From Candidatus Nomurabacteria bacterium (GTDB lineage Bacteria; Patescibacteriota; Minisyncoccia; Phycocordibacterales; JAACPR01), in assembly GCA_020632215.1 (NCBI GenBank), contig JACKFZ010000005.1, positions 21,128 through 85,127 of the forward strand: a stretch of DNA of 64,000 bases, given 5' to 3'. Position numbers and translations under genes: made by a program. Shown in pieces: positions 1,283-21,634 of this stretch (position 1 is its first letter; each line of letters opens with the position of its first letter). Below the pieces are notes generated by a model. The model had not been told where the DNA came from. It saw only the letters and a list, made by a program, of their open reading frames with translations, and ran no database searches.

Positions 1283-1597
1283 ATGGAAATGACGCTCGAC
1301 CAATTCGTCCTGATCTTCGCACTATGTGTTGCCGTTTTTCAATTCGGAGGATTCTTCTTGGCCTTCCAAGCACAAAAAACAAAAGTTCTGTTTTTTAGAA
1401 TCGCCTACTTCATTTGGTCGATTGCTTCGTTCTGTATTGCATCAACTCTTGCAATCCAAGCAATCAATATATTTGAGGGAAAAGAAACCACCCTCAAAGA
1501 GTTTTTCCAGATGCTAATTGCGGGGCTCATTATAGCAATCCTGTTCCTCTGGGGCTCATCTTGTCAAAAAAAGACAAGTGCATCTTTAATTGACTGA
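1283..1597 (+). CDS. small membrane protein, hypothetical
   Basis: 104-aa ORF with three hydrophobic helices; TGA stop; followed by the terminator hairpin at 1605-1660. Confidence 0.4.
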   Translation: MEMTLDQFVLIFALCVAVFQFGGFFLAFQAQKTKVLFFRIAYFIWSIASFCIASTLAIQAINIFEGKETTLKEFFQMLIAGLIIAILFLWGSSCQKKTSASLID

Positions 1598-1779
1598 ACT
1601 CAAGCAGCCGCGCGCGCGGACCGGCCTTACCCGTCGGTCCCACTTCTTTTATTTATATTAGTTTTTAGTGCCTAGTGGTTAGTTTATAGTTTTCAGGTAA
1701 TAGAATAAATAATTGACAGAAAAAATGGTTAAGGTAAGTTAATGAAGAACCCCGCACTGTAACTTCAGCTCTTAAAAAG

Positions 1780-2280
1780 ATGAGTGATTGGATAATAATC
1801 AATATCATGGTTTTTGGCCCCATGATGGTCTTCTTGCTTGCGGCACTTGTCTGTAAGCACAAAATGATCAAGGGAAGTACACAATGGAACATTGGCATGA
1901 CAGTTTGTGCTATTTTACTGCTATGTCTTTCATTCTTCCCGTGGCTCCTGGCCCAAGTGAAATACTCCCAAAATCCAGACTGTATGTCTCTGGCAATACT
2001 GACTTATGCCTTGTTTGTCATAGGGCTAACGAAAGCAAAAGAAAGTATCAGAGAATTTGCAGGAATTTTCGGGATAAATTCAATACGGCCGGAAAGTATC
2101 GGCAACTTTCTGATTTCTTTCAGCAAAAGCCTGACAATGTTCACACTGAGTGCAACCATGTGGCAAGCATCAATGAGTCCATCGAGTTTCTCTTTTTCCA
2201 TCTCGATAATGGCAGCAGCGATACTCTACTGGATATCGGCCAAAATGACACACTTCCTGTTGTCTCACGACCTGATATGA
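1780..2280 (+). CDS. membrane protein, hypothetical
   Basis: 166-aa ORF with multiple TM segments; followed by a duplicated copy of the same terminator module (2300-2345). Confidence 0.4.
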   Translation: MSDWIIINIMVFGPMMVFLLAALVCKHKMIKGSTQWNIGMTVCAILLLCLSFFPWLLAQVKYSQNPDCMSLAILTYALFVIGLTKAKESIREFAGIFGINSIRPESIGNFLISFSKSLTMFTLSATMWQASMSPSSFSFSISIMAAAILYWISAKMTHFLLSHDLI

Positions 2281-2460
2281 GACTTTCAACCTTCTCTCAC
2301 CTGTTGTGGACCGGCCCCATTCGTCGGTCCCACTTCTTTTTATTTATATTAGTTTCTAGTGCTCAGCTATTAGCTGTCAGCGGTCAGAAAGTTAGGTCAC
2401 TTATATAAAAACTAACCTCTGATATCTGATGTCTGATGTCTAATGTCTGATGTCTAATTA

Positions 2461-4442: not shown

Positions 4443-5030
4443 TTAAAGCTGACTCTCCTTCAATGCTCTATTGATTTCAGAGAGAACTACTTTTCTGCTT
4501 CTTTTTATTTCTTCAATGTGCTCATTTTTCATAGAATTGTCCAGAATAAAAAATTGTAAGTCTTTGTGATCACCTACATATCCAAGATTATTCAAAATCC
4601 TTAAAACCAAAACACATTCAATATCTTTTATTTGATCATCGAATAAATGATCTTTTTCTAAAAATAAAATAGCGTTATTCAAAATATCGAAAAGGTGTTC
4701 GTTTTTCTCTTCTCCGTTAATGAGTCTTCCCAATAGAGAAAATATTCTGGCTACTAATCTAAATCTTTGATCAGAACCTAATTGGTAATAAATATTTGAA
4801 AGAGAATATGCATTAGTTATGCGCCAACCTGTTTTTCCAAACACTAAGGCAATATTTGCCAGAGAATATTTTTGCAAAGCAAATCTAAGTTTCGACTTTT
4901 CAAATCTAATACCTTGGGCAGAAGCATAAATCAGTCCAAAATCTTTAGTAAATAAAACAAAAGTTTTGCCTGCCTCACCATTCGGCCGTTCATCTAAAAC
5001 ATATGCATCTGTGTGATATATAGTATGCAT
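4443..5030 (-). CDS. recO: DNA repair protein RecO-like
   Basis: N-terminal OB-fold pattern DAYVLDERPNGEAGKTFVLFTKDFGLIYASAQGIRFEKSKL...LANIALVFGKTGWRITNA matches the RecO family. Confidence 0.55.
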   Translation of the reverse strand: MHTIYHTDAYVLDERPNGEAGKTFVLFTKDFGLIYASAQGIRFEKSKLRFALQKYSLANIALVFGKTGWRITNAYSLSNIYYQLGSDQRFRLVARIFSLLGRLINGEEKNEHLFDILNNAILFLEKDHLFDDQIKDIECVLVLRILNNLGYVGDHKDLQFFILDNSMKNEHIEEIKRSRKVVLSEINRALKESQL

Positions 5031-5138
5031 GGTTACCTGTCATCCCAGATTCTAAACCAGAACTTTAGTCAAAAATATATGCTTAAAGTTGTTCGGTTTT
5101 CCAGACTCCGCCTAAGGCGGATCTGGAATGACCTTTTA

Positions 5139-8100
5139 TTATTTTACAATACTAATCTTCACTTCTCCAAAACTTAGACCAACTACTTCTCCATCTTCAT
5201 CAATAAATTTAAATTCTGAAATACCAGCTGTACTTTCTATCTCTTTTCTAAACATGTGAATCAAATGTTCTGCTGATTTTGAAATAGTCAAAGTAATTTT
5301 GTCACTTGGCTTCAAATTCATATTTTTTCTCAGACTTTGGATAGAACGAATAAGCTCCCGAGAATCTCCTTCGTTTTTCAAATCTTCGGTAATATTTGTA
5401 TCTAGTTCAACTTTTTTGTCTAACCCAATATCATAATTTACTTCCTTAACATTGACTTCATCTTTTATAAGATCAATTAGGCTAGCTTCGTAATGAGATA
5501 TCTTCACGTTAGTCTTCATAGACTGAAGTGGTTGTCGAACTTTTATACCAGCCTTTGTCCTAGCTTCCAAAGCAATACTGATGAGGTCTCTAATTTCATA
5601 CATTCTCTGTATTAAAGATTGATCAAAACTAGATTTTTTACCAAATAATTTTGCAAAAAATGAAACACTTTGAACTTGTGGCCAATCTTCTAAGTGAACA
5701 CTTTCTTTTCTACCTCCAATTCTCTGATAAACATCTTCTGCAAGATAAGGAGTAAAAGGTGCCATTATTTTTGACAGTTCTATCAAAACAAATTTCATTG
5801 TTTTCAACGCATTTTCCTTATCACCATCTTCCTTAAATCTATCTCTAGATCTTCTAACATACCAAGTAGAAAGATCATCGATAAAATCCAAGATTGGTCT
5901 CTCTGCCCTATCAAGTTTGTATGCTTCCATATTTTCTGTCACTTCTGCAATTGTCTGAGACAATTTAGCTAAAATCCATTTATCTAAAATATTTTCTGAT
6001 TGACTTGAACCTTCTACTTTCTTATCGGCATAAAGTTTATAGAAGGAGACAACGTTTCTTAAACGTAAAATTATTTTTTTATAAATTTCATCAACTCCTT
6101 TTTCTGAAAAATTTAAGTCTTCTGATTGAACTACTGGTGAAGAAAGCAAATAATATCTTTCTGCATCAACACCATATTTATCAAAAATTAACCAAGGGTC
6201 TGGAAAATTGTTTTTTGATTTTGACATCTTTGATCCATCTTCGGCCAAAATATTCCCTGTTGTCACCACATTTTCAAATGGAACATTGTCAAATAGTATG
6301 GCTGAAAGAATATGTGTGTAATAAAACCATGTTCTTGTCTGAGCAATATACTCAGCTACAAACTGTGCTGGGAAATTTCTTTTGAAATTTTCTTTATTTT
6401 CAAAAGGATAATGTTTTTGTGCAAAAGGCATTGATCCAGACTCAACCCAACAATCAATAACTTCAGAGATTCTAGTAAACTTTTTGTCATTCTCTTCAAA
6501 AGTAATGTCGTCAATATATGGTCGGTGAAAATCTAATTCGTAATTATCGTTATGTGGAATTGTCGCGAAATCATATTTTTCGTAATATCCAGGAACAACG
6601 ACTTCTCCTATTTTTTTTCTCATAGAAACAGTATCTGTAATATCTAAACCATTTTGCATAGCCTTTAACATCCAGACACAATATTCGTGAGTAATGATAA
6701 GAATATTTTTTGCTTGATATTTTTTATCTATTTCATAAATAAAATCGCCACATCTTTTCCTCAAATCCAAAATAGACTCTCCACCTTTTGATGGTTTAGT
6801 CATTTTTTCTTCCAATGATGCGAATTGTTCTCGATATTCTTTGCCTAATTTACCATTAAAATTACCAGCTTGAATCTCTTTTATTCTGTCATCTACTAAA
6901 ACATTACTTTTATCCAAACCTAAGCCCTTAGCTACAATGTCTGCAGTTTGTGTTGTTCTATCCAACGGCGAAGTGATGATCAAATCAATATTTTGATTTT
7001 TGAAAAACTCTATTGAATTTCTGACTTCCTCTTTTCCTTTTTCTGTTAAATCACTTTTGACATCATTAGTTGAACAGACAAAATCATCAACATTGCTTTG
7101 TGCTTCACCATGTCGCATGACGAAATATTTGTTTGTGCTTTTTGTTTTTTCTTTTAATTCATCCAAAGATCCGAGAACTTTTAATTCCATTCCATCTTCA
7201 GATTTCCAAAAAGGCAAAGGTGACGCCCAATATCTATTTCTAGAAATGTTCCAATCTGGTGCACTTTCCATACTTTTTTTGAATCTTCCTTCTTTCAAAT
7301 GTTCTGGCACCCAATTGATCTTATTGTTCAAATCCAAAGCTCTTTGTTTAACACTTTGAATATTTATAAACCAAGCAGAAAGTGCGTTATAGAAAAGAGG
7401 AGTCTCACATCTAAAACAATGGGGGTAGGAGTGAATTATTTTTTCTTTTGAAAAAAGCTTCCCTCTATGTGCTAGATTTTTAATAATCTCGATATCTGTT
7501 GATTGGTGAAAATCTTTTTGTTCTGGTGTTGATTTTGGCTTTACTTTGATACCTGCAAACTCTGTCACTTTGTCTATAAAAGTGCCGTTTTGAGCAACAT
7601 GATAGATCAAAGGTAAATTAACCTTTTTTGCTAAAACCATATCTTCTTCACCATACACTGGTGCAAGATGGACAATTCCAGTTCCCTGCTCTGTGGTGAC
7701 ATAATCCGCATTCCATATTTTCCAAATATTTTCTTTATTCTTCAATGGAACATCTTTGAAGTAGTCAAAAACGGGCAAATAACTTTTACCGATCAGATCT
7801 TCTGTATTAACTTTTTCTCCATTAACATCTTCTTTAAAAACTTTTTCAGCTAAATCTTTAGCGACAATATATTTCCCATCTTCTCTAATAACTTGTATAT
7901 ATTCCAAATCTTTATTTATGGCAGCCGCCACATTTCCTGGTAAAGTCCACGGAGTGGTTGTCCAAGCAAGTAAATATGTTTTCAGTTCACTTGCCCCGTT
8001 TGACGCAGTCGTCGAAGACGACTTTTCGTCATTTACGGGGTCAATAAGTTCAAGCTTAACAGTGACAGAAATATCGGTTATGTCTTTGTAACTGTTGTCC

Positions 8101-8741
8101 ATGGCAATCTCTGAGTTTGCAATAGGAGTCTCACATCTAGGACAATAAGGTAAAACTTTTTCTCCTTCATACAAAAGTCCTTTGTTATGAATTTCTTTCA
8201 GTGCCCACCACACAGATTCTATGTAACTATTCTGCATTGTTAAATATGCACCATCAAAGTCTACCCATCGGGCCATACGTTCAACAGTTCTTTTCCATGC
8301 ATCTACATATTCCAAAACTTGAGCTCGGGCAGTTTCATTAAATTGTTGAATGCCGATTTTTTCAATTTCCTTTTTACCAGAAATTCCTAATTTCTTTTCA
8401 ACAATATTTTCTATTGGTAAACCGTGAGTATCCCAACCCCATCGTCTCTCCACTCTTTTTCCTCGCATTGTCTGGTATCTAGGTACCACATCTTTGATTG
8501 TACTAGCTAAAATATGTCCATGATGTGGTAAGCCAGTAGCAAAAGGAGGTCCATCATAAAAAACATAACTACCATTTGGCGATGGTTTTTTTAAACTTTT
8601 TTCAAAAATTTGATTATCTTGCCAAAATTTCAGTATTTCTTCTTCACGTAAAGCCACTTCAGACTTTTTTTGGCTATTTGAGTCAGTCATAGGACATACA
8701 ATACGATGAAATAAAGGTTTTTTCAAGACACTACCCCGCAC
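5139..8741 (-). CDS. ileS: isoleucyl-tRNA synthetase (type 2) with an inserted histidine-phosphatase domain
   Basis: HIGH motif PFATGLPHHGHIL, KMSKS motif, DWNISRNRYW and CWVESGSMPF blocks. 1200 aa, about 190 aa longer than usual because of an insertion at residues ~537-733 carrying RHGEAQSN / SPLDRTTQTA / ITHE. The true start is probably M18 (MTDSNSQKK). Confidence 0.9.
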   Translation of the reverse strand: MRGSVLKKPLFHRIVCPMTDSNSQKKSEVALREEEILKFWQDNQIFEKSLKKPSPNGSYVFYDGPPFATGLPHHGHILASTIKDVVPRYQTMRGKRVERRWGWDTHGLPIENIVEKKLGISGKKEIEKIGIQQFNETARAQVLEYVDAWKRTVERMARWVDFDGAYLTMQNSYIESVWWALKEIHNKGLLYEGEKVLPYCPRCETPIANSEIAMDNSYKDITDISVTVKLELIDPVNDEKSSSTTASNGASELKTYLLAWTTTPWTLPGNVAAAINKDLEYIQVIREDGKYIVAKDLAEKVFKEDVNGEKVNTEDLIGKSYLPVFDYFKDVPLKNKENIWKIWNADYVTTEQGTGIVHLAPVYGEEDMVLAKKVNLPLIYHVAQNGTFIDKVTEFAGIKVKPKSTPEQKDFHQSTDIEIIKNLAHRGKLFSKEKIIHSYPHCFRCETPLFYNALSAWFINIQSVKQRALDLNNKINWVPEHLKEGRFKKSMESAPDWNISRNRYWASPLPFWKSEDGMELKVLGSLDELKEKTKSTNKYFVMRHGEAQSNVDDFVCSTNDVKSDLTEKGKEEVRNSIEFFKNQNIDLIITSPLDRTTQTADIVAKGLGLDKSNVLVDDRIKEIQAGNFNGKLGKEYREQFASLEEKMTKPSKGGESILDLRKRCGDFIYEIDKKYQAKNILIITHEYCVWMLKAMQNGLDITDTVSMRKKIGEVVVPGYYEKYDFATIPHNDNYELDFHRPYIDDITFEENDKKFTRISEVIDCWVESGSMPFAQKHYPFENKENFKRNFPAQFVAEYIAQTRTWFYYTHILSAILFDNVPFENVVTTGNILAEDGSKMSKSKNNFPDPWLIFDKYGVDAERYYLLSSPVVQSEDLNFSEKGVDEIYKKIILRLRNVVSFYKLYADKKVEGSSQSENILDKWILAKLSQTIAEVTENMEAYKLDRAERPILDFIDDLSTWYVRRSRDRFKEDGDKENALKTMKFVLIELSKIMAPFTPYLAEDVYQRIGGRKESVHLEDWPQVQSVSFFAKLFGKKSSFDQSLIQRMYEIRDLISIALEARTKAGIKVRQPLQSMKTNVKISHYEASLIDLIKDEVNVKEVNYDIGLDKKVELDTNITEDLKNEGDSRELIRSIQSLRKNMNLKPSDKITLTISKSAEHLIHMFRKEIESTAGISEFKFIDEDGEVVGLSFGEVKISIVK

Positions 8742-8802
8742 TGAGCTATGCTCTGGTATAGGGTAAAGTGAAACAGCCGTCTTGCCTCCTACAAAACGAC
8801 TG

Positions 8803-9063
8803 CTATTTTTTGTGTGCGTATAGGGCTTGTCTCATCCAATCATCGTTACCGAATTGGACATCAGCTTGTCGGACCATCTTTTTGGCTCGACGTTTGTCGA
8901 TGGAATATTTTTCAACTCCATCAGGTAGTTCAGCCACCTTATCAATCTTGGTAGCATGCTGACCTTCAATCATTTCAGCACGATACCAGTGATTCTCTAG
9001 CTGGAAGAAGACTGAAATGGAAAGTTTGCCATTCAAGTCTTCAACTTTTTTGAATGCTTTCAT
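8803..9063 (-). CDS. hypothetical protein (GC-rich island)
   Basis: 86-aa ORF with strong AAAGGAGG SD; local GC is well above the genome background. Confidence 0.35.
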   Translation of the reverse strand: MKAFKKVEDLNGKLSISVFFQLENHWYRAEMIEGQHATKIDKVAELPDGVEKYSIDKRRAKKMVRQADVQFGNDDWMRQALYAHKK

Positions 9064-9291
9064 CTCGGCCTCCTTTCTAAGTTTGGTTTAATACTTTTAA
9101 AGTCACCATAACATACTGAGAGTATAAATCAAAAAATTATTTATCCTTTATTTTTTAAAAATCACCTGCTCATTGCCCGCCCAGAGGGTGGGGGTTAACC
9201 ACTTAAGTTATATTATACCAATCGCAAATAAAACCACGTTAAAGAAAAAATAAATTTTTTATGAAAATTTAAATAAAAATAAAAGAAGCGC

Positions 9292-9729
9292 TCAACCCAA
9301 AAGGGAGGCGCTGGATCCTTCAACAATTTCATACTCGAAATGTTCTTGAAGAAGAATTGGGTACCTAGCCGCAGCGAGTAAGACCGCTTCCCAGTGAGGA
9401 GATCGATCATCGTCTTCAAGAATCGGTTGTCGAGAAAATTCTTCAAAGTTACCGATTACATGAGGAAGATTCTCGAACACATGACCTTCTTGTAAGATAC
9501 TGAGAACTAACTCTTGATCTGTTGGGTTGCTTGATGGCCAAGAATCAACAGCCCCAGTAAAAAGAATGTAATTCGCGGCATCACGAATTGAGCATTCTTC
9601 GTCTATTGCAGCCCACATGAGAAGGATGATGATATCCATATCATCAAAGTGCTCGTGCCGATCTCTGAACAGAGTCTCTACGGCATAGAAGACGCTGTCA
9701 GGAATATCAGGATGCTTATTGTTGTTCAT
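9292..9729 (-). CDS. hypothetical protein (GC-rich island)
   Basis: 145-aa ORF in the same GC-rich island. Confidence 0.35.
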   Translation of the reverse strand: MNNNKHPDIPDSVFYAVETLFRDRHEHFDDMDIIILLMWAAIDEECSIRDAANYILFTGAVDSWPSSNPTDQELVLSILQEGHVFENLPHVIGNFEEFSRQPILEDDDRSPHWEAVLLAAARYPILLQEHFEYEIVEGSSASLLG

Positions 9730-9850
9730 TTCAGAATTTTTCTAGGGGTTAAATTTAAAACCGATGAATCAAAGTAGCTGCTTTTCGAACGAAAGAAATT
9801 CGAAGAGGAATTTCGCGAGAAAAACAGATAGCTTTTTCATAGCCACATTG

Positions 9851-10132
9851 CTACATCCAAAGACGCACTCTCTCAATCTCTTGATAACGTTCCCACGATT
9901 GGTCTCCGAAAATGTGTCGATGTGAATACAAAGCATTCCACGTTTGCACCAAAAAGAACTGGAGCAGAACTTTGGCCATCGCATCCTCACCGTCCACGGC
10001 CAACTGGAACAAGTGTCCGCATGTATGTTCCTCGTCTTTCAAAGGACCAAACCGTTGGACAAAATCTTGAACATAATTCCCCCTTTGTTTGAGCAGGAGA
10101 TCATAGCAAAAAGAAGCTGATGGTTCCTTCAT
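9851..10132 (-). CDS. hypothetical protein (GC-rich island)
   Basis: 93-aa ORF in the same GC-rich island. Confidence 0.3.
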   Translation of the reverse strand: MKEPSASFCYDLLLKQRGNYVQDFVQRFGPLKDEEHTCGHLFQLAVDGEDAMAKVLLQFFLVQTWNALYSHRHIFGDQSWERYQEIERVRLWM

Positions 10133-10369
10133 GGCTATAGATTTCTAGTTGTTGAGGGTTTTAGTTGAAAAGTGAATGAGCAAACTGCTCTAAAGTCTCA
10201 GATTAGCATTTCAAATGTAAAAAAGCAATTAAGATAAAGCTCGTTGAAAACTACTCTAGTTAAAGCTTGGAATTCGTGGAAGCAAGTGAGATCCTCTGTC
10301 AGGCCCAGGACAGAGATGTCTTTTGTAATTTAATCTTTAGAATTTGTTTCGGATTTCGTGCTTTATTTA

Positions 10370-12085
10370 TTACATTTTACTGGGCACAGGAATTCCTAAA
10401 ATATATAATCCGTTTTTAATAATAGTAGCCACTGCATGAGTAATAACAACTCTATAAGCAGAATGTTCATCATTTTCATCAACAATCTTTTGATTGCCAT
10501 AAAAGCTGTTAAATTCAGCTGATACTTCTATCAAATATTTCACTAATTTTTGCGGTCCCCTGTCCTCAAAAGAATCTTTAATAACTTCTGGCATTTGATA
10601 AAGTATTTTTTCTAAATTTGTAACTTGCCAATCACTTGGTTGTTTTACATTCAGGTCAACTAAACTTAACCCTTTGGCTTTTTCTAAAACAGAAAGAGCT
10701 CTAGTATGTGTGTATTGCAAATATGGACCAGAGTCACCTTCAAATGAAATAGATTTTTCAAAATCAAAGACAATATTCTTTCCTGGAGTTTGTTTTAAAA
10801 TTGAATATTTGATTGCTCCAACTGTCACCGCTAAAGCCACTAGATCTTTAAAGTCTTCATCGAAATCCCTTCCAGACATTTTCTCTTTCACTTTCTTAAC
10901 AACATCAGCTATCAATGAGGAAGCGGTGATGACATTTCCTAAACGAGAACTCATTTTGCCAGAAGATAGTTGTAACAAACCAAAAGTAATGTGTTCTGTC
11001 TTCTCTCTTATCTCAGGCATCATTTCTTCCATAGCAGCAAAAACTACTTTGAAATATTCCTTTTGCTCATTGGCTGTGATAATAACAGATTTGTCATAAT
11101 CAAACTTATCATCCTTCATTCTAGCTAAGCCGAGATCTTTGGCTTCATAAGTTGGTAAACCCTCTGATGTGAGAAAAACTCTGGTATGAAGACCCTTTTT
11201 TTCTCCTTTATAAACAATAGCTTCTTCACTTTTTTCAAAAATTCCCTTCTCCAAACCTTCTTCTACTATTTTCTTCCCGATATCAGCTGTTTCGCTTTCA
11301 AACAAATAATAGTCAAAAGTAGTTCCTAGAACTCGATATAGAATTTCAAAAGACTGCAGACTCCACTCTTTTCCTTTTTTATATAATTCATTCAGTTCGT
11401 TGTCTGATTTGGCAAAAAGCTTTTTGTTTATCTCTACAATCTCATTCTTAGCCTCTTCATCTTTTTCATACTGAGAAGCTCCAAAAGAATATGACGAACC
11501 TAGAAAATCTACTTTCTCTGTTAAAGAGTCATCATCCTTTGGTAAAGCTGATAGGTTTTGTTTCATCCCCCAAATAGCCTTGGCAACATGCAATCCAATA
11601 TCTCCTTGATAGTTTGCTCTCTTTACCTCTGCCCCGTTAGCTTCTGCTAACCTAGCCAATGCTTCACCAATCGCATTGGGCATCAAGTGACCAATATGAA
11701 AAGACTTAAATGGATTGAGATCTGTATATTCAAAAATAATTTTCTGATCTTTCAAACGAGTGTTTTTCCCATATTCATTTTCTTCATTCACCACTCTCTT
11801 CAGTGCATTTTCAAAAAACTTTTTAGATAAAAAGAAATTCAGAAAACCTGGACCGGCTATTTCTACCTTTTCAATTGTCTCGGGTAAATTATTTTCTAAC
11901 TCAGCCTTGATATCGCTAGCTAATTCTTGAGGATTTTTACCTGCTTCTTTAGCACCAACAATAGCAACATTGACTGCATAATCACCATGAGAAAAATCAG
12001 TGGGATGCTCAATTGTAAACTCAATCTGTGATAGATTTAGGTTTTTTAAAGCGTTCTTTATCAGTTTTTTTATCTCTTCTTTCAT
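10370..12085 (-). CDS. argS: arginyl-tRNA synthetase
   Basis: HIGH-region FHIGHLMPNAIGEALARL and ArgRS-wide similarity. The track start (12124) adds 13 residues, MTTFYILHTIYSS, encoded by the TGTAGAA heptamer repeat; the likely real start is MKEEIKK at 12085. Confidence 0.9.
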   Translation of the reverse strand: MKEEIKKLIKNALKNLNLSQIEFTIEHPTDFSHGDYAVNVAIVGAKEAGKNPQELASDIKAELENNLPETIEKVEIAGPGFLNFFLSKKFFENALKRVVNEENEYGKNTRLKDQKIIFEYTDLNPFKSFHIGHLMPNAIGEALARLAEANGAEVKRANYQGDIGLHVAKAIWGMKQNLSALPKDDDSLTEKVDFLGSSYSFGASQYEKDEEAKNEIVEINKKLFAKSDNELNELYKKGKEWSLQSFEILYRVLGTTFDYYLFESETADIGKKIVEEGLEKGIFEKSEEAIVYKGEKKGLHTRVFLTSEGLPTYEAKDLGLARMKDDKFDYDKSVIITANEQKEYFKVVFAAMEEMMPEIREKTEHITFGLLQLSSGKMSSRLGNVITASSLIADVVKKVKEKMSGRDFDEDFKDLVALAVTVGAIKYSILKQTPGKNIVFDFEKSISFEGDSGPYLQYTHTRALSVLEKAKGLSLVDLNVKQPSDWQVTNLEKILYQMPEVIKDSFEDRGPQKLVKYLIEVSAEFNSFYGNQKIVDENDEHSAYRVVITHAVATIIKNGLYILGIPVPSKM

Positions 12086-12147
12086 TGATGAGTATATAGT
12101 ATGTAGAATGTAGAATGTAGTCAATGGATGAGTATGTAGAATGTAGT

Positions 12148-12242
<95 letters not shown>

Positions 12243-12364
12243 AAAGATTATACTCATTGTCTATCTAATCACTAACCACCAGAAACTGATCACTAATATT
12301 GAAACAAAAAGATGAGGCGGTCGCGTCGTGGACGCGAGCCGCCAATAAGAGAGAGCTTCGAAAG

Positions 12365-12835
12365 TCAGGGCTCGGTACTGCTCGGTCGACCTTCGTCTTC
12401 GTATTTGGTCTTACGCAGAATCAGGCCGTCACAGATCAGCAAGTTGCCGTGATTAACGATATCTTCGATATCCTCCGCCGTAAGTGCTAGTTGCCAATGG
12501 CGGAGAACCATTTGTTTCGGGTCCCATTCTGGATAGTTTCCCCGAGGGGCTTTTTCCGAAATTTCGACCCAAGCGCCGAGTGATAGCTCGCGGAGGACTT
12601 TCCGAAGATCTTCCGGCTTTTCGCTCATTTGAGGAGCGCCCGCCAGAGCCACGAAGGACAAGTTGTCCTCTCTCAAGGCTTGCGAGACGGTATCCCGCAC
12701 TTGATCTTCCATAAAAGAATTGTCGTTGTATTTTATATTCGCAATGACTATCGCCACAATCGTGAAGGTGACTGCCATGATAACAAGTCCCTCCACCAGT
12801 GTAAGTCCAGAGTTTGTTTTTTTGTTTCCTTTCAT
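12365..12835 (-). CDS. type IV pilin-like / pseudopilin protein
   Basis: N-terminus MKGNKKTNSG|LTLVEGLVIMAVTFTIVAIV is a class III (prepilin) signal with Gly-1 and Glu+5. GC-rich ORF; its leader is shared with the ORF at 21128..21451. Confidence 0.5.
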   Translation of the reverse strand: MKGNKKTNSGLTLVEGLVIMAVTFTIVAIVIANIKYNDNSFMEDQVRDTVSQALREDNLSFVALAGAPQMSEKPEDLRKVLRELSLGAWVEISEKAPRGNYPEWDPKQMVLRHWQLALTAEDIEDIVNHGNLLICDGLILRKTKYEDEGRPSSTEP

Positions 12836-13091
12836 AACTGAATGCGCCTCCTTTCAAGCGCGAAGGGTTGATTGATGAAAAACAGGTTCCGAAAGACTTT
12901 ATGATATTTTTAAATTTATTGCAATCATTGAAAATAATCGCCTAAAGTTGTTCGGGATTTCAGACTCCGTCTAAAACGGATCCGGAATAACAACGATTAT
13001 ATAAAATTTAACCAGATCCTGACCGCGTCTGACGTAGCAAGAAGACAATACTAATTCTAATTACTGACAACTGTCTTCTGATCACTAATCA

Positions 13092-14423
13092 CTAGTAAAT
13101 CCCAAACTTCTGACACAATTCCTTCACTTCTTCCCTAATTTTTTTTAACTCTTCATTACCTTCAATCTTCTTTTGAAAATCTCTTAGGTAAGCAATACGT
13201 TCCTTTTTACCTTCTGGTAAATCAAATTCTGCAATTTGGTCAAAAACTCTTTTTAACCACCCTGCAACAATTTTCATTTCCTCTTCTTTCATTCCACGAG
13301 TTGTCATAATAGGGGTTCCAAGACGAACACCACTTGGATAAAAAGGAGAGCTTGGATCTTTCGGTATAGTATTTTTATTCAAAGTGATACCAGCAACATC
13401 TAAAGCATCTTGAAAAAAGACTCCTCTTCCCTTTCCACAATCAACAAGCATCAGGTGAGTATCAGTTCCTCCACCAATAACTTTCATACCTAAACTAATC
13501 AATTCTTGAGCCAGCGCTTTTGCATTTTTGACAATTTGCTTTGCATAATCTCTGAAGTCCGGTTTCATTGCTTCTGCCAACGCAACACCAATAGCTGCTA
13601 TCTGATGATTGTGTGGGCCTCCTTGCAATTGAGGAAAAATAGCTGAATCTATTTTTTTTGCCAAATCTTCATCTTTTTCCAAACCTTTTTTTGTGACCAT
13701 AATCATTCCTCCTCTTGGACCACGCAAAGTTTTGTGAGTAGTAGTTGTCATGATGTGAACATTATTTACGGGACTTGGATGAGAACCTCCAGCGACCATT
13801 CCTGCGATATGAGCAATATCTGCTGCTAAATATGCTCCGACACTGTCGGCAATTTCTGCAAATTTTTTATAATCTAAAATTTTTGAATAAGCAGAAGTTC
13901 CAACCCAAATCAATTTTGGCTTATTTTCTTTTGCCAATCTCTCTACTTCTTCCATATCAACTTCTCCATCTTCAGTAACATGATATTGAACAGATTTAAA
14001 ATATTTACTTGTAGCACTAGCTGGACTACCGTGCGTTAAGTGACCCCCGTCTGTCAGAGCTTGCCCCATAATAATATCTCCTGGCTGACAGACAGCGGTA
14101 TAAACAGCAAAGTTTGCTGGGCTTCCTGAATATGGTTGCACATTTACATGCTCAACTTCAAAAATCTTTTTTGCCCTCTCTTGAGTTAACTTTTCTATTT
14201 CATCTACAAATTGATTGCCACCATAATATCTTTTTCCCGGATAACCTTCTGAATATTTATTGGTAAAAACACTTCCAAGCGCTTCTAGAACACTTGGAGA
14301 AGTAATGCATTCTGACGGAATTAATTCCAAAGTATATTTTTGTCTGTCTATTTCTTTTAAAATCCAGTCATACATCTCTGGATCTGTCTTTTTTATATTT
14401 TCTAAATGTGATTCAAAATTCAT
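13092..14423 (-). CDS. glyA: serine hydroxymethyltransferase
   Basis: Full-length SHMT similarity (PLP-lysine region HVMTTTTHKTLRGPRGG). Confidence 0.9.
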   Translation of the reverse strand: MNFESHLENIKKTDPEMYDWILKEIDRQKYTLELIPSECITSPSVLEALGSVFTNKYSEGYPGKRYYGGNQFVDEIEKLTQERAKKIFEVEHVNVQPYSGSPANFAVYTAVCQPGDIIMGQALTDGGHLTHGSPASATSKYFKSVQYHVTEDGEVDMEEVERLAKENKPKLIWVGTSAYSKILDYKKFAEIADSVGAYLAADIAHIAGMVAGGSHPSPVNNVHIMTTTTHKTLRGPRGGMIMVTKKGLEKDEDLAKKIDSAIFPQLQGGPHNHQIAAIGVALAEAMKPDFRDYAKQIVKNAKALAQELISLGMKVIGGGTDTHLMLVDCGKGRGVFFQDALDVAGITLNKNTIPKDPSSPFYPSGVRLGTPIMTTRGMKEEEMKIVAGWLKRVFDQIAEFDLPEGKKERIAYLRDFQKKIEGNEELKKIREEVKELCQKFGIY

Positions 14424-14480
14424 GATATTTAAATAGTAAATAGTAAATAGTTAGTAGTTAGTAGTATTTATTAAATCATA

Positions 14481-15458
14481 TTATTTCTTCATAGCTTTAG
14501 TTCTGTCTTTTTCATCAAAACCTCCGGCTACTGTCATCTTGCCTTTTATAAAACCGTGTGGCTCGTAACCTTCAACAGTTACATGTTCTGGTTTAAATGT
14601 TTCCAAACTTGTCACTTCGTCAGAAATGATAAGTTTTGGAAAAGGTTTTGGTTCACGAGTTAACTGTTCTCTGACCTGCTCAACATGATCTTCGTAAATA
14701 TGCGCATCTCCAAAAGTATGGATAAATTCTCCGGGTTCATAGCCACAAATTTTGGCCATAATCATAGTCAAGGCAGAATAACTAGCAATATTAAATGGAA
14801 CTCCTAAAAACATATCTGCACTTCTTTGATAAAGCTGACAAGACAATTTTCCATCAGCAACATTAAAGTGAAATAGAATATGGCAAAGCGGAAATCGTAG
14901 AGCATCTCCCTCCTTCGCCATGGCATAAAGAAATTGAGGATTCCAAGCAGATAATACAGCATGCTTCCTTTCTGGATAATTTTTCAAAGTATCAACAATC
15001 CATGATAATTGATCTATTTTTCTACCGTCAGCTGCTGGCCACGCTCTCCATTGTTCACCATATATTCTCGGCAAGTGTCCGTGTTGTTCTGCAAAGTCAT
15101 CATCACTTCTAACTTTTTCAACAAACTCTTCTAAAGTCATGTCGGGTAACTCCCCTTTTTTAACTTTGTCTTGATAAATCTTGTATGGATAATCGTTCCA
15201 AATAGGCACCTTGTGATCAATAAGGTAACGAATATTAGTCTGGCCTGACATAAACCAGTAGAGTTCGTGCAATATACTATTCCATGCAACTTTCTTTGTA
15301 GTTAATAACGGAAAACCTTTTGATAAATCGTATCGAGTTTGTCTACCAAAAACACTTATCAAGCCATTACCAGTATTGTGATCATGTTTCAAAACACCAT
15401 TGTCTAAAATATCTTTTAACAAATCTAAGTATTGATATTCTGGGTGTCTATTTTCCAT
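14481..15458 (-). CDS. thyA: thymidylate synthase
   Basis: ThyA active-site region PLCHILFHFNV...QLYQRSADMFLGVPFNIASYSALT. Confidence 0.9.
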   Translation of the reverse strand: MENRHPEYQYLDLLKDILDNGVLKHDHNTGNGLISVFGRQTRYDLSKGFPLLTTKKVAWNSILHELYWFMSGQTNIRYLIDHKVPIWNDYPYKIYQDKVKKGELPDMTLEEFVEKVRSDDDFAEQHGHLPRIYGEQWRAWPAADGRKIDQLSWIVDTLKNYPERKHAVLSAWNPQFLYAMAKEGDALRFPLCHILFHFNVADGKLSCQLYQRSADMFLGVPFNIASYSALTMIMAKICGYEPGEFIHTFGDAHIYEDHVEQVREQLTREPKPFPKLIISDEVTSLETFKPEHVTVEGYEPHGFIKGKMTVAGGFDEKDRTKAMKK

Positions 15459-15461
15459 AAG

Positions 15462-16010
15462 CTATTTATCATTTTTATGAGGAACATATGCATTCCAGTT
15501 GTTGTCATGATATCGTCCCGTATCCTTATAATGTTGCTCTGTATCACTCGAAAGAGTTGAGAAGGTGATTTGACCAATAGCCATCTTTGGTCGAAGAATA
15601 ATTGGGATATTGTTTGTATTTGATAGTTCAAAAGCCACATTTAGTCTATGCCCTGGATTGATAATACCTGCAGTGTTGTGAATCATCAGGCCAATTCTTG
15701 CTAGAGAGCTTTTTCCTCCAAGCTGAATGAGGAATTTGTCAGAACCAAAGTAATCATGAGAAAAACCAATAACAGAAAGTCCTGGGTGCAATATGAACTT
15801 TCCATCATCTGGAATTTCTACTTCTCTCAAGTTTGCAAACTCTTTTTTGACAGGATCAATATAAGCCATATCATGACTGTCATGAAGCATAAATTTATTC
15901 CCCAGCAAAATATCATAACTAGCTGGTTGTAATCTTTCTTCATCAAAAGGTTCAAGAGTAATGTTCCCTACTTCAACTTCTCTTTTTATATCCTTATCAA
16001 CTAAAAACAT
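15462..16010 (-). CDS. dcd: dCTP deaminase
   Basis: MFLVDKDIK...ITLEPFDEERLQPASYDILLG and the rest match the Dcd/dUTPase fold. Confidence 0.85.
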   Translation of the reverse strand: MFLVDKDIKREVEVGNITLEPFDEERLQPASYDILLGNKFMLHDSHDMAYIDPVKKEFANLREVEIPDDGKFILHPGLSVIGFSHDYFGSDKFLIQLGGKSSLARIGLMIHNTAGIINPGHRLNVAFELSNTNNIPIILRPKMAIGQITFSTLSSDTEQHYKDTGRYHDNNWNAYVPHKNDK

Positions 16011-16014
16011 AAGC

Positions 16015-16689
16015 TTATTCTATATTAAATACTTTATCAGTGCCGTAATAATCTCTCCAATTTTTATTATAAAAATCAAACATTCTCTCTAATCTATCTT
16101 GCATCAACTCAACTACTCCGAATTCATTCATCAAGTCATTCAGCATTTTCTTTTCTTCTTCTACTGTCTCATCAGAATCAACAACTGTCTCAAATTCCGC
16201 TAAATATCCATAACCTGAATTTTTATCAATAGTAACATTAACTTCATCGTTGAGTTTGTATTCTTCCCTTTCTCTGGACCACTTAGCTTGATATTCCAAT
16301 CCGTTTTCTAAAAGAAGTTTATCTAAATCATCTAAAGTCATACCAACTTCATCTTCGAATTCCATTCGGGAAACAGCGTTGGAGCTAGTGCCTTCATCAA
16401 TAGACGCCTTTATAACTAAAATCACTTTCCCGTCAGCATCGCGAGTTCTAATAGAAAAATCTTTTCCGTCTGTAAGAATTTTTTTGAAATAATCTTTCTG
16501 TAATTCAGAAACATGTGGTTCTAGTCCATTTTTAAATTTTTCTAAATCATTAATAACAAAATAGTGATTGAGTTGTTTGTGCTGACTTTTTAAAGTAGCG
16601 CCTTTAGCGAGCAACTTATCTCGCAAATTATCAGCATTTTCTTTCTCCCCGAGTAAGCTTTTTATTTCTATTTCAAATTGAGATGACAT
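16015..16689 (-). CDS. CYTH-domain (triphosphate tunnel metalloenzyme) protein
   Basis: N-terminal EIEIK (ExExK) motif followed by IRTRD...K...R.E.E, the CYTH pattern. Confidence 0.45.
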   Translation of the reverse strand: MSSQFEIEIKSLLGEKENADNLRDKLLAKGATLKSQHKQLNHYFVINDLEKFKNGLEPHVSELQKDYFKKILTDGKDFSIRTRDADGKVILVIKASIDEGTSSNAVSRMEFEDEVGMTLDDLDKLLLENGLEYQAKWSREREEYKLNDEVNVTIDKNSGYGYLAEFETVVDSDETVEEEKKMLNDLMNEFGVVELMQDRLERMFDFYNKNWRDYYGTDKVFNIE

Positions 16690-16749
16690 ATTCGTTTTCA
16701 GTGAAAATTAATATGTGTAGTATACTAAAATGATTACAAAATATCAGCG

Positions 16750-17265
16750 TTGACAAATAGTGGAAAAATTATGAAAAAGCCAATGATAAGTGCCATAGCA
16801 GCTATAGGTGCCCAAAATAGAGTTTTGGGTAAAAATAACACACTTTTGTGGCATATTCCTGAGGATATGAAGCATTTTAGAGACATAACCAAAGGTCATG
16901 CTGTCATTATGGGAGGTAACACATTCGCTTCTTTAAATAATAAACCTTTACCTAACCGAGTAAATATAGTTGTGACCAAAGATGAAAACTTTGTCGCGGA
17001 AGAAGTTTATGTAGCCCATTCAATAGAAGAAGCTATTGAAATTGCCAAGCAACACGAAACAGAAGAAATTTTTAATATCGGTGGAGGACAAATCTATACC
17101 ATTGGCCTTCCCTACGCTGACCGTCTTTATCTGACACTAATAGATACAGACATAGAAGGTGATGTCTATTTCCCAGAATATGAAAAAGATTTTACAAAAG
17201 TTGTTTCAAAAGTAAATTCCCAAGATAAAAATTTTAAATATCAGTTTGTTGTGTTGGAGCGGTAG
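16750..17265 (+). CDS. folA: dihydrofolate reductase
   Basis: ISAIAAIGAQNRVLGKNNTLLWHIPEDMKHFRDITKGHAVIMGGNTF is the DHFR signature. Confidence 0.85.
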   Translation: MTNSGKIMKKPMISAIAAIGAQNRVLGKNNTLLWHIPEDMKHFRDITKGHAVIMGGNTFASLNNKPLPNRVNIVVTKDENFVAEEVYVAHSIEEAIEIAKQHETEEIFNIGGGQIYTIGLPYADRLYLTLIDTDIEGDVYFPEYEKDFTKVVSKVNSQDKNFKYQFVVLER

Positions 17266-18017
17266 TTTGGTAACTTTGTATTGTCAATATCTTTCGAAGA
17301 AAAATTTACAAAAATTCCTCTTGTTACTGGTTTGGAATTCTCATCGGATTCTGTTCGTATCAAAAAACCTCTTCGCTTTTGAGTATCCATAACAAATGTA
17401 TCAGTTCCTTTACCAATCTTTGGCCCACCAACAACCTGAGGATAAAAATCCAATACGCTTTTGACCAAACTTGAAACAAAAGAAATTGATCTTCTATAAT
17501 TATTCTCTGGGTCCCCTATTTCTTTTCTCTCATCATCACTGATTTGTATATTGTTACCACCAAAGATTACAGAATCAATGGTTCCTTCATTACACCTGTC
17601 CCTCATTTCTTCTAATACACTTATAAGATCATCTCTAAAATCTGTACTATCTAAATTCAAGAAGTCTGTATTATATTGATGCGATATGAAAGAAATTTCT
17701 CTACCTGTTTTTTTATCAATTCCTAAAACAACAAGACCTGTGCAATTAGAATATCTGTCAGAATATTTAGCATTCTCATTTATTCCAGAAATAGCATACC
17801 CCCGTCTCCTAACTCCAGTTTCAGCTTCTCCTTGTGTTTCGTAATAATCAACACTTTCAAGATAAGTATCTCCATCAACAAAATGTTGATTTTGGATAGT
17901 CTTTGCATCATTGAAATGTTCATCCATAGTCCCAACAGAAACAATGATCGGATTAACTCCCTCTTTCAGATGCTCAAACCCCTCTTCATTCCTGTAATCA
18001 AATTTATCTAAATTCAT
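17241..18017 (-). CDS. hypothetical protein
   Basis: 258-aa ORF with no recognisable motif. Confidence 0.4.
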   Translation of the reverse strand: MNLDKFDYRNEEGFEHLKEGVNPIIVSVGTMDEHFNDAKTIQNQHFVDGDTYLESVDYYETQGEAETGVRRRGYAISGINENAKYSDRYSNCTGLVVLGIDKKTGREISFISHQYNTDFLNLDSTDFRDDLISVLEEMRDRCNEGTIDSVIFGGNNIQISDDERKEIGDPENNYRRSISFVSSLVKSVLDFYPQVVGGPKIGKGTDTFVMDTQKRRGFLIRTESDENSKPVTRGIFVNFSSKDIDNTKLPNYRSNTTN

Positions 18018-18118
18018 ATGTAGACCATTATGCTATAAATTATAAAAATAAAAAGTTTGACAACTATTTTAAAAAGATAGGCTGGAAGAAAACAGTTCAA
18101 CTCACAACCCATCACAGG

Positions 18119-18541
18119 ATGGCAGAAGACACTAATTTTCATATTGTACCACAACAAATTGTTGGTATTGGTAACCAAGTGAATGGACACAATCAAGTAG
18201 GAATCATCCTTCACCATCACAGAGATTACCTTGAATTGCTCGGTATCAACGCTAGAAAATTGGAGGCTCAAGAATTATTCTTCTTCACGAGAAGTCTTGG
18301 AGAAACAACCTTCCCGCATGTACTGCTGGCCAACAGCATGATGAAAATTCATGTTCGCATTTGGCTTCCAAGGCACGATGAGACCAAAATGCTCATGGAT
18401 GGTCAGATCTCTGTCCAAGGTAAAGTAACGGCAAAGATGGCTCCATCAGAAATGGTCCTGTGTACCCTTGATAGCACACCGGTCAAAATACCAGATTGGA
18501 TTCGAGACATCATCGGTAGAGACACACCAGACGATATCTGA
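18119..18541 (+). CDS. hypothetical protein (GC-rich island)
   Basis: 140-aa ORF followed by the terminator cccacggaccgcttcggcgagttcgtgttttt. Confidence 0.35.
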   Translation: MAEDTNFHIVPQQIVGIGNQVNGHNQVGIILHHHRDYLELLGINARKLEAQELFFFTRSLGETTFPHVLLANSMMKIHVRIWLPRHDETKMLMDGQISVQGKVTAKMAPSEMVLCTLDSTPVKIPDWIRDIIGRDTPDDI

Positions 18542-18653
18542 TTTCACAATTTCTTCAACCCCACGGACCGCTTCGGCGAGTTCGTGTTTTTATTTGACAA
18601 CTATTTGAAAGATAATATTCTTAGAAATAGAAGAACTCTAACCCGCACCGAAA

Positions 18654-19007
18654 ATGGACATAGCACTAAGACTCATCCAGTTCAATGAAAACCACCCTTT
18701 AAAACCAGATGGAAAAGTAAGGGCTCTTGTCTTTATCTCGACAGGAGGAGGCATGGATCTTTCTGTAGAAGAAGTCAAAAAAATGGCAGATGAAATTAAG
18801 TTTGCCTTCCCTGACTGTCATATTGATGAAGAAAGTATGCATGTTGGTATGACGACCCCGAACTTCTCAGGGCCAAATGAACCAGATCCTTTCTTTTGTT
18901 ATCGAGGTGTGTACACCTATATCACCATAAACCGAGACAGGAGACCAGAAGGATGGACAGTCTCTGTCAAAGGAAGAAATTCCCCATATGAACGGCTGGA
19001 AATCTAA
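18654..19007 (+). CDS. hypothetical protein (GC-rich island)
   Basis: 117-aa ORF followed by a second identical copy of the same terminator. Confidence 0.35.
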   Translation: MDIALRLIQFNENHPLKPDGKVRALVFISTGGGMDLSVEEVKKMADEIKFAFPDCHIDEESMHVGMTTPNFSGPNEPDPFFCYRGVYTYITINRDRRPEGWTVSVKGRNSPYERLEI

Positions 19008-19510
19008 CCATTTCCTCGCCCCCCCACGGACCGCTTCGGCGAGTTCGTGTTTTTTATTTCATATTTTCTTCACACTTTTTAAGTTTTCTTTATTAAAACT
19101 TTAACTTTTTTTGTATGTTTTTTGAGAATAGATTTGTTAGAATTTTCAATAGCCCAGAACCAAAGCATAGCTTGGTTCTGGATTAGTCCCGAACCGAACA
19201 AAGTTCTGGTTCGGGAGTGGTAAGCGGTAAGCCCCCACCCAAAAGGGCGGGAATTTTAATAAAATTTTTTGAGATTTATTTAGATAAAAAGATATTTTGT
19301 GAAAATAGCACCCCAAACATGTACCTTATGCCTGTTTTTTGTTTAAAATTATCGTCTTCCTAAACACAAGCACTTGGTGTGCTAAGTGCTTGTGTTTTTC
19401 AGAATCTTAGTAAATTACAGCTAAATCTAACCAGATTCTGAATGTCACAAAACCCCGCACTATTACAGCGCGGGGCTTCGTTCTTTCAGGAAGATGTGGT
19501 TTTTGAAAAT

Positions 19511-20667: not shown

Positions 20668-20686
20668 ATTGATAATTTATTAAAAT

Positions 20687-20866: not shown

Positions 20867-20937
20867 ATTTTTACTAATTTATCCATTTTTAAAAGCCCTT
20901 TCGGGCCTTTTGATACGTACATATTACAGGGTTAAAA

Positions 20938-21612: not shown

Positions 21613-21634
21613 AGATTTCGTACTTAGCGTTTCG

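Follow-up and report, generated by a model that had tools for sequence, protein, structure and literature searches.

GC-raised small-gene islands between the housekeeping genes of a Candidatus Nomurabacteria bacterium: candidate moron-like accessory cassettes

Why should short, GC-raised patches, each carrying one or a few small open reading frames (ORFs), interrupt the housekeeping operons of an AT-rich, ultra-small bacterium of groundwater type? The question is raised by a 64,000 nt stretch of a Candidatus Nomurabacteria bacterium (JACKFZ010000005.1, positions 21,128-85,127, assembly GCA_020632215.1), which we refer to as the window. Its overall GC content is 35.6%, and its backbone includes the genes for IleRS, ArgRS, SHMT, thymidylate synthase, dCTP deaminase, DHFR, ribonucleotide reductase, RuvA, a Mur ligase and Fpg, together with secE-nusG-rplK, rplS and rpsT. 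A preliminary description of the sequence listed nine patches, numbered here in order as islands 1 to 9 (8760-10350, 12300-12860, 18100-19070, 21080-21470, 22540-22860, 34050-34710, 40120-40560, 54500-54840 and 56900-57440), and proposed either repeated acquisition of foreign small genes or a binning or assembly chimera. The island products are publicly annotated as hypothetical proteins only (locus tags H6775_024xx to H6775_027xx on an 86.7-kb contig). We lean, with modest confidence, towards the view that the islands are moron-like accessory cassettes, laterally acquired or exchanged, that were inserted between backbone genes. A moron, in the term of Hendrix and colleagues, is an extra promoter-ORF-terminator unit in lambdoid prophages.

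The islands differ from their surroundings in GC, in GC at third codon positions (GC3), in codons and in dinucleotides, so that composition is not uniform when properly measured. An initial estimate of about 50% GC holds only for 12300-12860 and 56900-57440, although all listed islands are raised: at the coordinates first given they range from 39.9 to 50.1% GC (mean and pooled value 43.7%) vs 34.8% for the rest of the window. The main comparison, based on a greedy ORF map, set 11 island ORFs (GC 0.41-0.50, GC3 0.37-0.60) against 51 background ORFs of at least 300 nt (GC 0.26-0.40, GC3 0.16-0.33). The two sets do not overlap in either measure, and the Mann-Whitney U is maximal (p = 1.2e-7). The GC split also holds against 28 small background genes; since these resemble the large ones, gene length is not its cause. 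The codon-usage check that had been proposed was run as a leave-one-out log-likelihood, which takes negative values for each of the 12 ORFs initially counted as island ORFs and positive ones for every background gene of at least 450 nt except 1884-2408, which lies inside a further, unlisted island (1250-2460; GC 0.41, island-like codon usage). Amino-acid composition and GC at first codon positions (GC1) of the island ORFs are shifted too. The dinucleotide signature of the pooled islands lies at delta* = 97 from the background, vs a length-matched backbone null of 35 +/- 12 (maximum 71), and the island difference therefore exceeds plain GC content. Translational selection for C-ending codons was rejected as a cause, because the ribosomal-protein genes (L11, L19, S20) and nusG have background GC3. 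Some of the window's other GC-rich patches do not qualify as ORF islands, being tRNA genes or probable structured RNAs.

Translation starts separate the two classes as well. Strong Shine-Dalgarno (SD) sequences had been ascribed to the island ORFs in general; six of the 11 show a GAAAGGAGG-type SD at a spacing of 5-9 nt from the ATG, but the other five lack one. That background genes mostly do without was borne out, with a GAAAGGAGG-type SD at only 4 of 53 (Fisher p = 9e-4 vs the islands). SD-bearing leaders precede the ORFs starting at 9063, 12835, 21451, 22846, 34705 and 54839, CA-rich leaders without SD those starting at 18119, 18654 and 57433; counted over all cassettes, GAAAGGAGG-type SDs number eight. 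At about a dozen backbone genes a -10 hexamer with at least five of six consensus matches ends 6-7 nt before the ATG (for example at starts 48384, 48997, 50180, 52299, 52807, 34007 and 16010, with hexamers TATAAT, TACAAT, TATGAT, TAAAAT and TAGAAT). Judged by this spacing, the pattern suggests that leaderless mRNAs may be widespread in the backbone of this genome.

Every island holds at least one unit in which a TTGACA-like box within AT-rich sequence precedes a leader and a single short ORF, and a GC hairpin with a T run behind it closes the unit. At each unit the boxes and the hairpin/T-run elements can be read by consensus match only, and there is no overall enrichment of promoter-like sites. 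The units are as follows.

9851-10132, minus strand: island 1, ORF a, 93 aa; first gene after ArgRS; GC 0.454, GC3 0.49; no SD
9292-9729, minus strand: island 1, ORF b, 145 aa; GC 0.438, GC3 0.39; only a self-match in the protein search
8803-9063, minus strand: island 1, ORF c, 86 aa; SD AAGGAGG; its own terminator just before the IleRS start
12365-12835, minus strand: island 2, type IV pilin-like protein, 156 aa, between SHMT and ArgRS; SD and terminator; GC 0.495, GC3 0.54
18056-18591, plus strand: island 3, cassette A; promoter-like TTTGACAACTATTT, CA-rich leader, 140-aa ORF at 18119-18541 (GC 0.43, GC3 0.42), terminator CCCCACGGACCGCTTCGGCGAGTTCGTGTTTTT
18593-19054, plus strand: island 3, cassette B; the promoter-like box and terminator of cassette A around an unrelated 117-aa ORF at 18654-19007
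21128-21451, minus strand: island 4, membrane-like ORF, 107 aa; SD; GC 0.432, GC3 0.60
22550-22846, minus strand: island 5, 98-aa ORF; SD AAGGAG; GC 0.465; present in SRR26387399
34052-34705, minus strand: island 6, divergent CYTH/TTM-like protein, 217 aa; SD AGAAAGGAGG; GC 0.42, GC3 0.38
40437-40562, minus strand: island 7, ORF a, highly basic 41-aa peptide; SD-like GGAAGG; its own terminator
40172-40321, minus strand: island 7, ORF b, basic 49-aa peptide; SD GAAAGGAAA; terminator
54504-54839, minus strand: island 8, 111-aa protein; SD GAAAGGAG; terminator; adjoins tRNA-Arg(gcg); GC 0.446, GC3 0.51
56945-57433, minus strand: island 9, 162-aa ORF; CA-rich leader, strong terminator; GC 0.483, GC3 0.54; no family match
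1283-2350, plus strand: unlisted island (1250-2460); two unrelated membrane-like ORFs at 1283-1597 (104 aa) and 1780-2280 (166 aa)
60519-60650, plus strand: mini-cassette; SD AGAAAGGAGGTGG (13 nt), hydrophobic 31-aa peptide at 60532-60627, terminator

A 73-aa ORF earlier placed in island 7 (40318-40539) is unlikely to be real; the island holds the 41- and 49-aa basic ORFs instead. The true start of the neighbouring L19 gene is 40057, the L19 domain beginning at residue 90 of the long ORF.

Could the contrast reflect pieces of another organism joined into the contig by assembly or binning? Apart from the compositional contrast itself, nothing speaks for this. We compared the window with contigs from other sequencing runs, which reproduce the following segments.

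4803-12179: L103 (SRR26387399), 99.92% identity; ArgRS, the 93-, 145- and 86-aa ORFs, IleRS and RecO, and thus island 1 with both junctions
12228-14707: L008 (SRR14493015)
14119-18588: L100-L102 (SRR12358675/SRR12358676), ending at 18588
19227-22651: L010 and L011 (SRR12358675 and SRR12358676), 100% and 99.9% identity
21570-32407: L009 (SRR26387399), 99.5% identity
33406-35267: L012 (SRR26387399), 98.4% identity

The comparison thus covered five listed islands out of nine, whose junctions recur, along with the adjoining backbone, at 98.4-100% identity. The 86-aa ORF sequence recurs in contigs of SRR26387399, SRR14493015 and ERZ27309212. Where the other-run contigs break, they do so at the duplicated terminator and at a heptamer array, which are true repeats. 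Moreover, two relatives described below (L013 and L096) hold orthologous GC-rich genes at the same slots. Because assemblies from other runs reproduce the junctions of five islands, we regard a chimera as very unlikely, to the point of giving it practically no weight.

If the islands are genuine, are they insertions? Relatives were collected as a graded series, from an SHMT metagenome scan and an IleRS look-up. L096 (GC 34%) has an ArgRS and an IleRS that are 79% and 75% identical to those of the window, and L097 (GC 33%) an IleRS that is 65% identical; L013 is a short contig of a third AT-rich relative, on which the 3' end of the SHMT gene is followed by a pilin-like orthologue. L017 and L018 are more distant (GC 52-53%, IleRS identity about 45%), with synteny to the window over 17 and 13 genes. 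In these last two, gaps of 7-189 bp stand where islands 1, 3, 4, 5 and 7 sit. In L017 the ArgRS-IleRS gap is 125 bp vs 1629 bp in the window (island 1), the SIMPL-secE gap 105 bp vs 769 bp (island 4) and the gap between the DsbA-like gene and SIMPL 189 bp vs 745 bp (island 5); 7 bp follow L11 (island 3), and the pseudouridine synthase and L19 genes are directly adjacent, with a gap of 0 bp (island 7). The ArgRS-IleRS gap of L097 is 66 bp. L096 is without the 145- and 86-aa ORFs and has a methyltransferase gene of background GC in that place. At the place of the unlisted island (1250-2460), which L096 lacks, that relative has a gap of 300 bp and L097 one of 53 bp. For islands 8 and 9, a search with the M20 peptidase for a close relative gave 54% identity as the nearest match.

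Some slots are occupied in relatives, and there the GC contrast persists. Just after ArgRS, L096 has an orthologue of the 93-aa ORF that is 135 aa long and 38% identical (E = 3e-18; GC3 0.39 vs a background of 0.25), and upstream of ArgRS it has a pilin-like orthologue (29-33% identity, GC3 0.54). The pilin-like orthologue of L013, in the same slot, is about 50% identical and has GC 0.50 and GC3 0.63, the sequence upstream having GC 0.35. Every related copy of an island gene that we found (in L096, L013, L014 and L015) has a GC3 of 0.38-0.63, vs 0.24-0.28 for the backbone in both lineages, the window and L096. Between these two, fourfold-degenerate sites are near saturation, housekeeping genes included: in ArgRS 55 of 152 third positions are identical (50 expected from base composition), in IleRS 129 of 284 (103 expected). 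For the pilin-like orthologues of the window and L013, nine sites are identical vs 9.1 expected under saturation. One ancient transfer with subsequent amelioration should have wiped out the GC3 contrast, which instead survives saturated synonymous divergence. This leaves either a repeated import of alleles into fixed slots, from a GC-richer pool, or a gene-specific force.

Several islands share sequence modules with one another or with the backbone. The preliminary description held that a number of them are bounded by repeat families or duplicated terminators; this applies to 18100-19070, 21080-21470, 22540-22860 and the unlisted island, but no such flanks were found at the others. Promoter box and 33-nt terminator are the same in both cassettes of island 3, whose ORFs lack mutual similarity, and the flanking direct repeats of 14 and 33 nt are above null expectation. 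In the unlisted island the same terminator follows both ORFs (about 1615-1665 and 2300-2350). A leader of about 35 nt, gcgcttgaaaggaggcgcat, is common to the 107-aa gene of island 4 and the 156-aa gene of island 2 (upstream of 12835). The D2 module (76 nt), an imperfect hairpin containing CCACGTGGAACGTG followed by a promoter-like TTGACA-N17-TAATAT, occurs three times; copies 1 and 2 have a 28-nt exact repeat in common and flank island 4. The motif was not found in any of the relative contigs compared.

20935-21010, minus strand: D2 copy 1, upstream of secE-nusG-rplK
21526-21601, minus strand: D2 copy 2, upstream of island 4 (107-aa ORF)
22905-22980, minus strand: D2 copy 3, upstream of island 5 (98-aa ORF)
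12931-12991, minus strand: hairpin, then motif CCGAACAACTTTAGG, upstream of island 2; repeat families D8/D12

The last of these belongs to a family of hairpins with a CCG(A/T)ACAACTTTAGG motif, seen at 5072-5132 (after IleRS), 12931-12991 (after SHMT) and 20075-20107 (between nusG and rplK) and twice in L096 (32-83), upstream of its pilin-like gene.

Strain variation was seen in one island gene, the CYTH-like gene. Two strains with about 99.5% identity elsewhere differ in it at 19 positions within 68 nt (34610-34677), a tract that indicates recombination with a divergent allele. The same two strains also differ in a segment adjoining tRNA-His, described below, which we count in favour of lateral exchange. 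A diversity-generating retroelement was considered for the variable tract in the CYTH-like gene and rejected, as all substitution types occur and no template repeat was found.

The products themselves give few leads. Scans against Pfam, PHROG, PADLOC and NCBIfam returned zero family matches for any island product, in agreement with the initial remark that the products lack recognisable domains. Of the two features then excepted, the CYTH fold was confirmed, but the pilin-like N-terminus is visible in the sequence only. Homology searches, as had been proposed, were run for eight products by exhaustive HMMER (1.84 billion representatives of about 15 billion proteins): the 86-, 98-, 117-, 140- and 145-aa proteins matched only themselves, and the remaining three have few relatives (two for the 156-aa protein, three for the 111-aa protein and about a dozen for the 217-aa protein). 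The island proteins are not paralogues of one another. The 111-aa family is small (P0014, at 42% identity, P0017 and P0022); the homologous gene in L014 has an SD, a GC of 0.40 vs 0.28-0.33, and adjoins a different tRNA-Arg gene.

The 217-aa product of island 6 is the most informative. Its family alignment (12 sequences) conserves EIEQKY (ExExK), RxR and ExE strands, with E26, E28, R78, R80, K92, E102, E152, E171 and E173 invariant. An AlphaFold2 model (pLDDT 86.4) predicts an eight-stranded, tunnel-like barrel, for which the best Foldseek hits were Pyrococcus 1yem and 2een (target-normalised TM-score 0.68-0.76, E = 2e-6 to 4e-6), with thiamine triphosphatase and RNA triphosphatases next. The protein had no match to Pfam PF01928 at E <= 0.1, and its family profile retrieved no CYTH chain from the PDB sequences; the relationship emerged from the fold comparison only. 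The predicted model thus confirms a CYTH fold for this product, divergent from the canonical family: it shares the ExExK motif, the alternating charged beta-strands and the predicted tunnel-like barrel of CYTH/TTM proteins but falls below the Pfam threshold and belongs to a small divergent clade of about a dozen sequences. A canonical CYTH gene (PF01928, E = 1e-10) with background composition lies at 16015-16689, in a thymidylate/folate cluster, and is distinct from the island 6 gene. Downstream of the CYTH-like homologue in L015, the segment 840-1000 looks by eye like a SAM-I-type riboswitch (ccagagtgtggcgagggaactagcccgatgaa).

The 156-aa protein of island 2 begins with MKGNKKTNSG followed by LTLVEGLVIMAV. 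A class III prepilin-type signal is recognizable in it (MKGNKKTNSG and then LTLVEGLVIMAVTFTIVAIVIANI) and in its orthologue P0009 (PSA and then FSLVETLVVIAV), and is degenerate in L096 (P0023). The protein gave no match in Pfam, including N_methyl (PF07963), for which P0009 has a weak precomputed match. Its AlphaFold2 model has a long N-terminal helix and then an alpha/beta domain, with a pLDDT of only 57, too uncertain for a fold search. In L096 (130-170) and L013 (215-290), SD-like GAAAGG/GAAAGA sites stand 27-55 nt from the ATG of the pilin-like orthologues; a stem between the SD-like site and the ATG (GGTGTGGG...CCCACC in L096, GGCGCG...CGCGCC in L013) could bring both together.

With most ORFs lacking relatives, coding cannot be confirmed by conservation, and some of the GC-rich patches might instead be structured non-coding RNA whose ORFs arise by chance, stop codons being rarer at higher GC. 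The 86-aa gene lends this some colour. Its mRNA is strongly structured (z = -5.2 to -5.7), its SD pairs with UCUUCUUCC inside the ORF, and the sequence upstream of the ORF is aacttagaaaggaggccgagATG; at z of about -5.5 the segment 8803-9063 folds far beyond shuffles, and ORF-less patches of the window (24850-25300 and 56290-56520) are strongly structured too. However, shuffled sequences fold just as well as the native ones for nine of the 11 island ORFs (z -1.5 to +0.7), the only exception besides the 86-aa gene being, more weakly, the 156-aa gene (z = -2.5). An Rfam scan of the window at the gathering threshold and at E = 0.1 gave tRNAs only. SDs are correctly spaced before the ATG, the ORF fills the space from leader to terminator, GC1 exceeds GC at second codon positions in frame, four families are conserved as protein and one of them yields the confident CYTH model. 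We give the non-coding explanation little weight, its chance of being right being small. The two ORF-less patches, GC-rich and without convincing ORFs (fold z = -5.3 and -3.9, no Rfam match), may be new structured RNAs, judged by folding; 24850-25300 lies upstream of the DUF1761-TspO genes and 56290-56520 adjoins rpsT.

Where, then, did the island genes come from? For repeated acquisition of foreign small genes, as first proposed, speak the insertions relative to syntenic relatives, the odd codons and dinucleotides and the scarcity of relatives for most products; a link to a donor, a phage, a plasmid or a mobility gene did not emerge. Lateral origin, the mode of insertion and any function of the products are what we infer from these patterns. 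A cassette would have been inserted into an intergenic slot complete with its promoter-like box, a leader carrying either a maximal SD or a CA-rich tract, a single short ORF and its intrinsic terminator. Such cassettes would be drawn from a laterally circulating, fast-evolving gene pool of about 41-50% GC with leader and SD starts, the resident genes being of about 34% GC and largely leaderless or without SD. Insertion and turnover could proceed by recombination at short shared modules (terminator hairpins, promoters, leaders) and at conserved flanking genes. Unrelated ORFs would then be left with duplicated modules round them, and one allele could replace another in a fixed slot.

A number of results weigh against this account. 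No donor lineage was identified, and the island dinucleotide signature lies nearer to the host backbone (delta* 97) than to the GC-rich Parcubacteria sampled (157-214); the latter (L017, L018 and Wildermuthbacteria, 46-53% GC) were rejected as donors on account of these distant dinucleotides and because they hold no island-gene homologues. No integrase, transposase, recombinase or phage gene was found among the window proteins scanned, a scan that did not take in every ORF. The island products had no match in the PHROG and PADLOC collections, and viral contigs scanned with the CYTH-like protein and the pilin-like alignment contained no relatives. A search for target-site duplications around each island found none, only the module duplications at islands 3 and 4, and flanking repeats exceed chance at some islands only. 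In L097, other such slots are taken up by small unknown ORFs that are unrelated to those of the islands and do not differ from the background in composition. Finally, the pilin-like and 93-aa genes have same-slot orthologues in AT-rich relatives with GC3 raised despite synonymous saturation, and homologues of the CYTH-like and 111-aa genes elsewhere also keep a raised GC3. Genes with GC-rich orthologues at the same slot are therefore not recent arrivals that are simply ameliorating.

The same observations can be turned into an argument that nothing foreign is involved: the islands would be endogenous, vertically inherited small-protein genes that are specific to the lineage, their high GC, structured mRNA and maximal SD kept by selection or by GC-biased gene conversion at recombination hotspots, and they would form a second, SD-dependent expression regime beside a leaderless backbone. 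Conserved slots, a GC3 of 0.38-0.63 in all related copies despite saturation, the SD of the L014 homologue, dinucleotides nearer the host than any candidate donor, scans of window proteins that turned up no mobility genes, and an 86-aa gene whose mRNA sequesters its own SD all fit that description. It accounts less well for the absence of most islands from syntenic relatives and for the many products without relatives. The highly expressed L11, L19, S20 and NusG genes show no GC shift, so ordinary translational selection is insufficient; amino acids and GC1 are shifted, as expected from a different mutational regime, and the duplication of modules, like the mosaic tract, speaks for exchange. 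We consider vertical inheritance rather unlikely, though deserving of serious attention. A bolder reading is an integrase-less cassette system with two initiation regimes, in which a leaderless AT-rich backbone would coexist with GC-rich small-protein genes that have structured mRNAs and near-perfect anti-SD complements (up to 13 nt), whose composition would be actively held off equilibrium by mRNA selection or biased conversion, and to which new members would be added by capture through portable promoter and terminator modules. This reading strikes us as improbable.

Returning to laterally exchanged cassettes, comparison with known systems helps to place them. Morons are likewise single small ORFs, mostly of unknown function and with a composition unlike that of their neighbours, that carry their own promoter-like site and terminator, predicted ones in the case of the islands, between genes adjacent in relatives. 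They sit in prophages, whereas the islands lie in a Candidate Phyla Radiation (CPR) housekeeping backbone (aminoacyl-tRNA synthetases, SHMT, secE-nusG-rplK, rplS, rpsT) where no phage families were found, and several island units share duplicated regulatory modules. The literature of Daubin and Ochman and of Lawrence and Ochman reportedly treats laterally acquired orphan genes, genomic islets and amelioration. The islands resemble such orphans and islets in being short, fast-evolving, of narrow taxonomic range and atypical composition, mostly without known function, and absent from syntenic relatives, apart from the pilin-like gene and the 93-aa gene, both of which have counterparts in L096 or L013. 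In contrast, the islands exceed the host in GC, where a higher AT content is usual for orphan genes, and are very small (0.15-1.6 kb), no mobility genes, donor or homologues in unrelated lineages or mobile elements were found, and amelioration is not seen, the contrast being undecayed at saturated divergence.

Integron cassettes are also unrelated small ORFs of atypical composition separated by a repeated imperfect-hairpin element. Yet no integron integrase occurs in the scanned window proteins, the island repeats are terminators and promoter modules rather than attC sites with R and L boxes, and each unit has its own promoter-like site and is scattered between housekeeping genes, not arrayed at attI. 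In the minimal mobile elements of Neisseria and the pilA allele island next to a tRNA gene in Pseudomonas aeruginosa, a variable locus that lies between conserved neighbours is exchanged by homologous recombination. Island 2 offers a likeness in its fixed slot (SHMT-ArgRS), its divergent pilin-like alleles (29-55% identity) and its atypical GC, and a recombination tract is present in one island gene. Most islands are not pilins, however, and exchange between lineages and uptake by competence are here only presumed.

CPR bacteria, or Patescibacteria, have tiny, streamlined genomes, and where accessory functions are kept and renewed in them is poorly understood. Our data suggest that accessory genes may be held as single-gene micro-cassettes (0.15-1.6 kb) in the gaps of a strongly syntenic backbone. 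Standard island finders target regions of about 10 kb and would therefore miss them. Horizontal transfer of single genes and of islands has been described for Patescibacteria (PMC12455944), where it takes place mainly inside the phylum and most of what is transferred has no known function; single-gene transfer of this kind is thus already known. What appears to be new lies in the details: the micro-cassette architecture, the contrast between a putatively leaderless backbone and SD-led cassettes, and the failed amelioration. The lasting GC contrast offers a concrete test, in an uncultured lineage, of amelioration vs recurrent exchange or biased conversion. Several candidate small proteins (pilin-like, divergent CYTH, basic and membrane peptides) seem worth testing for roles in host contact or stress.

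The window has further variable and repetitive features. The segment adjoining tRNA-His (35267-36033, 0.77 kb) is replaced in the SRR26387399 strain by 1.5 kb (L012, 154-1643) that contains a 219-aa ORF, a 91-aa ORF and a YafQ-type toxin module, all of background GC. Four tRNA genes or clusters (His, Leu, Val-Arg and Ser) are each followed, at a distance of about 100-150 nt, by a GC-rich element with AAGTGTTCGCGACCCCGACTCG (36136-36179, 39234-39255, 45816-45859 and 52486-52507; no Rfam match). Intergenic tandem heptamers (TCAGCGG/TCAGCTA, GTAGAAT, CTGATGT, TAGTAAA/TAGTTAG), often just upstream of starts, occur at 12140-12250, 12091-12123, 40684-40745, 62562-62615, 2423-2463, 49753-49776, 56868-56891, 14434-14465, 24818-24849 and 29897-29928. 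Their copy number varies between strains (L009 has 21 extra nt at 25299 and 7 at 24829), and relatives have other heptamer units at equivalent places, such as (TTACTAC)9 before ArgRS in L097. The IleRS (5139-8741) contains an inserted histidine-phosphatase domain (PF00300), and the same architecture is present in 120 of 120 listed Parcubacteria-type homologues.

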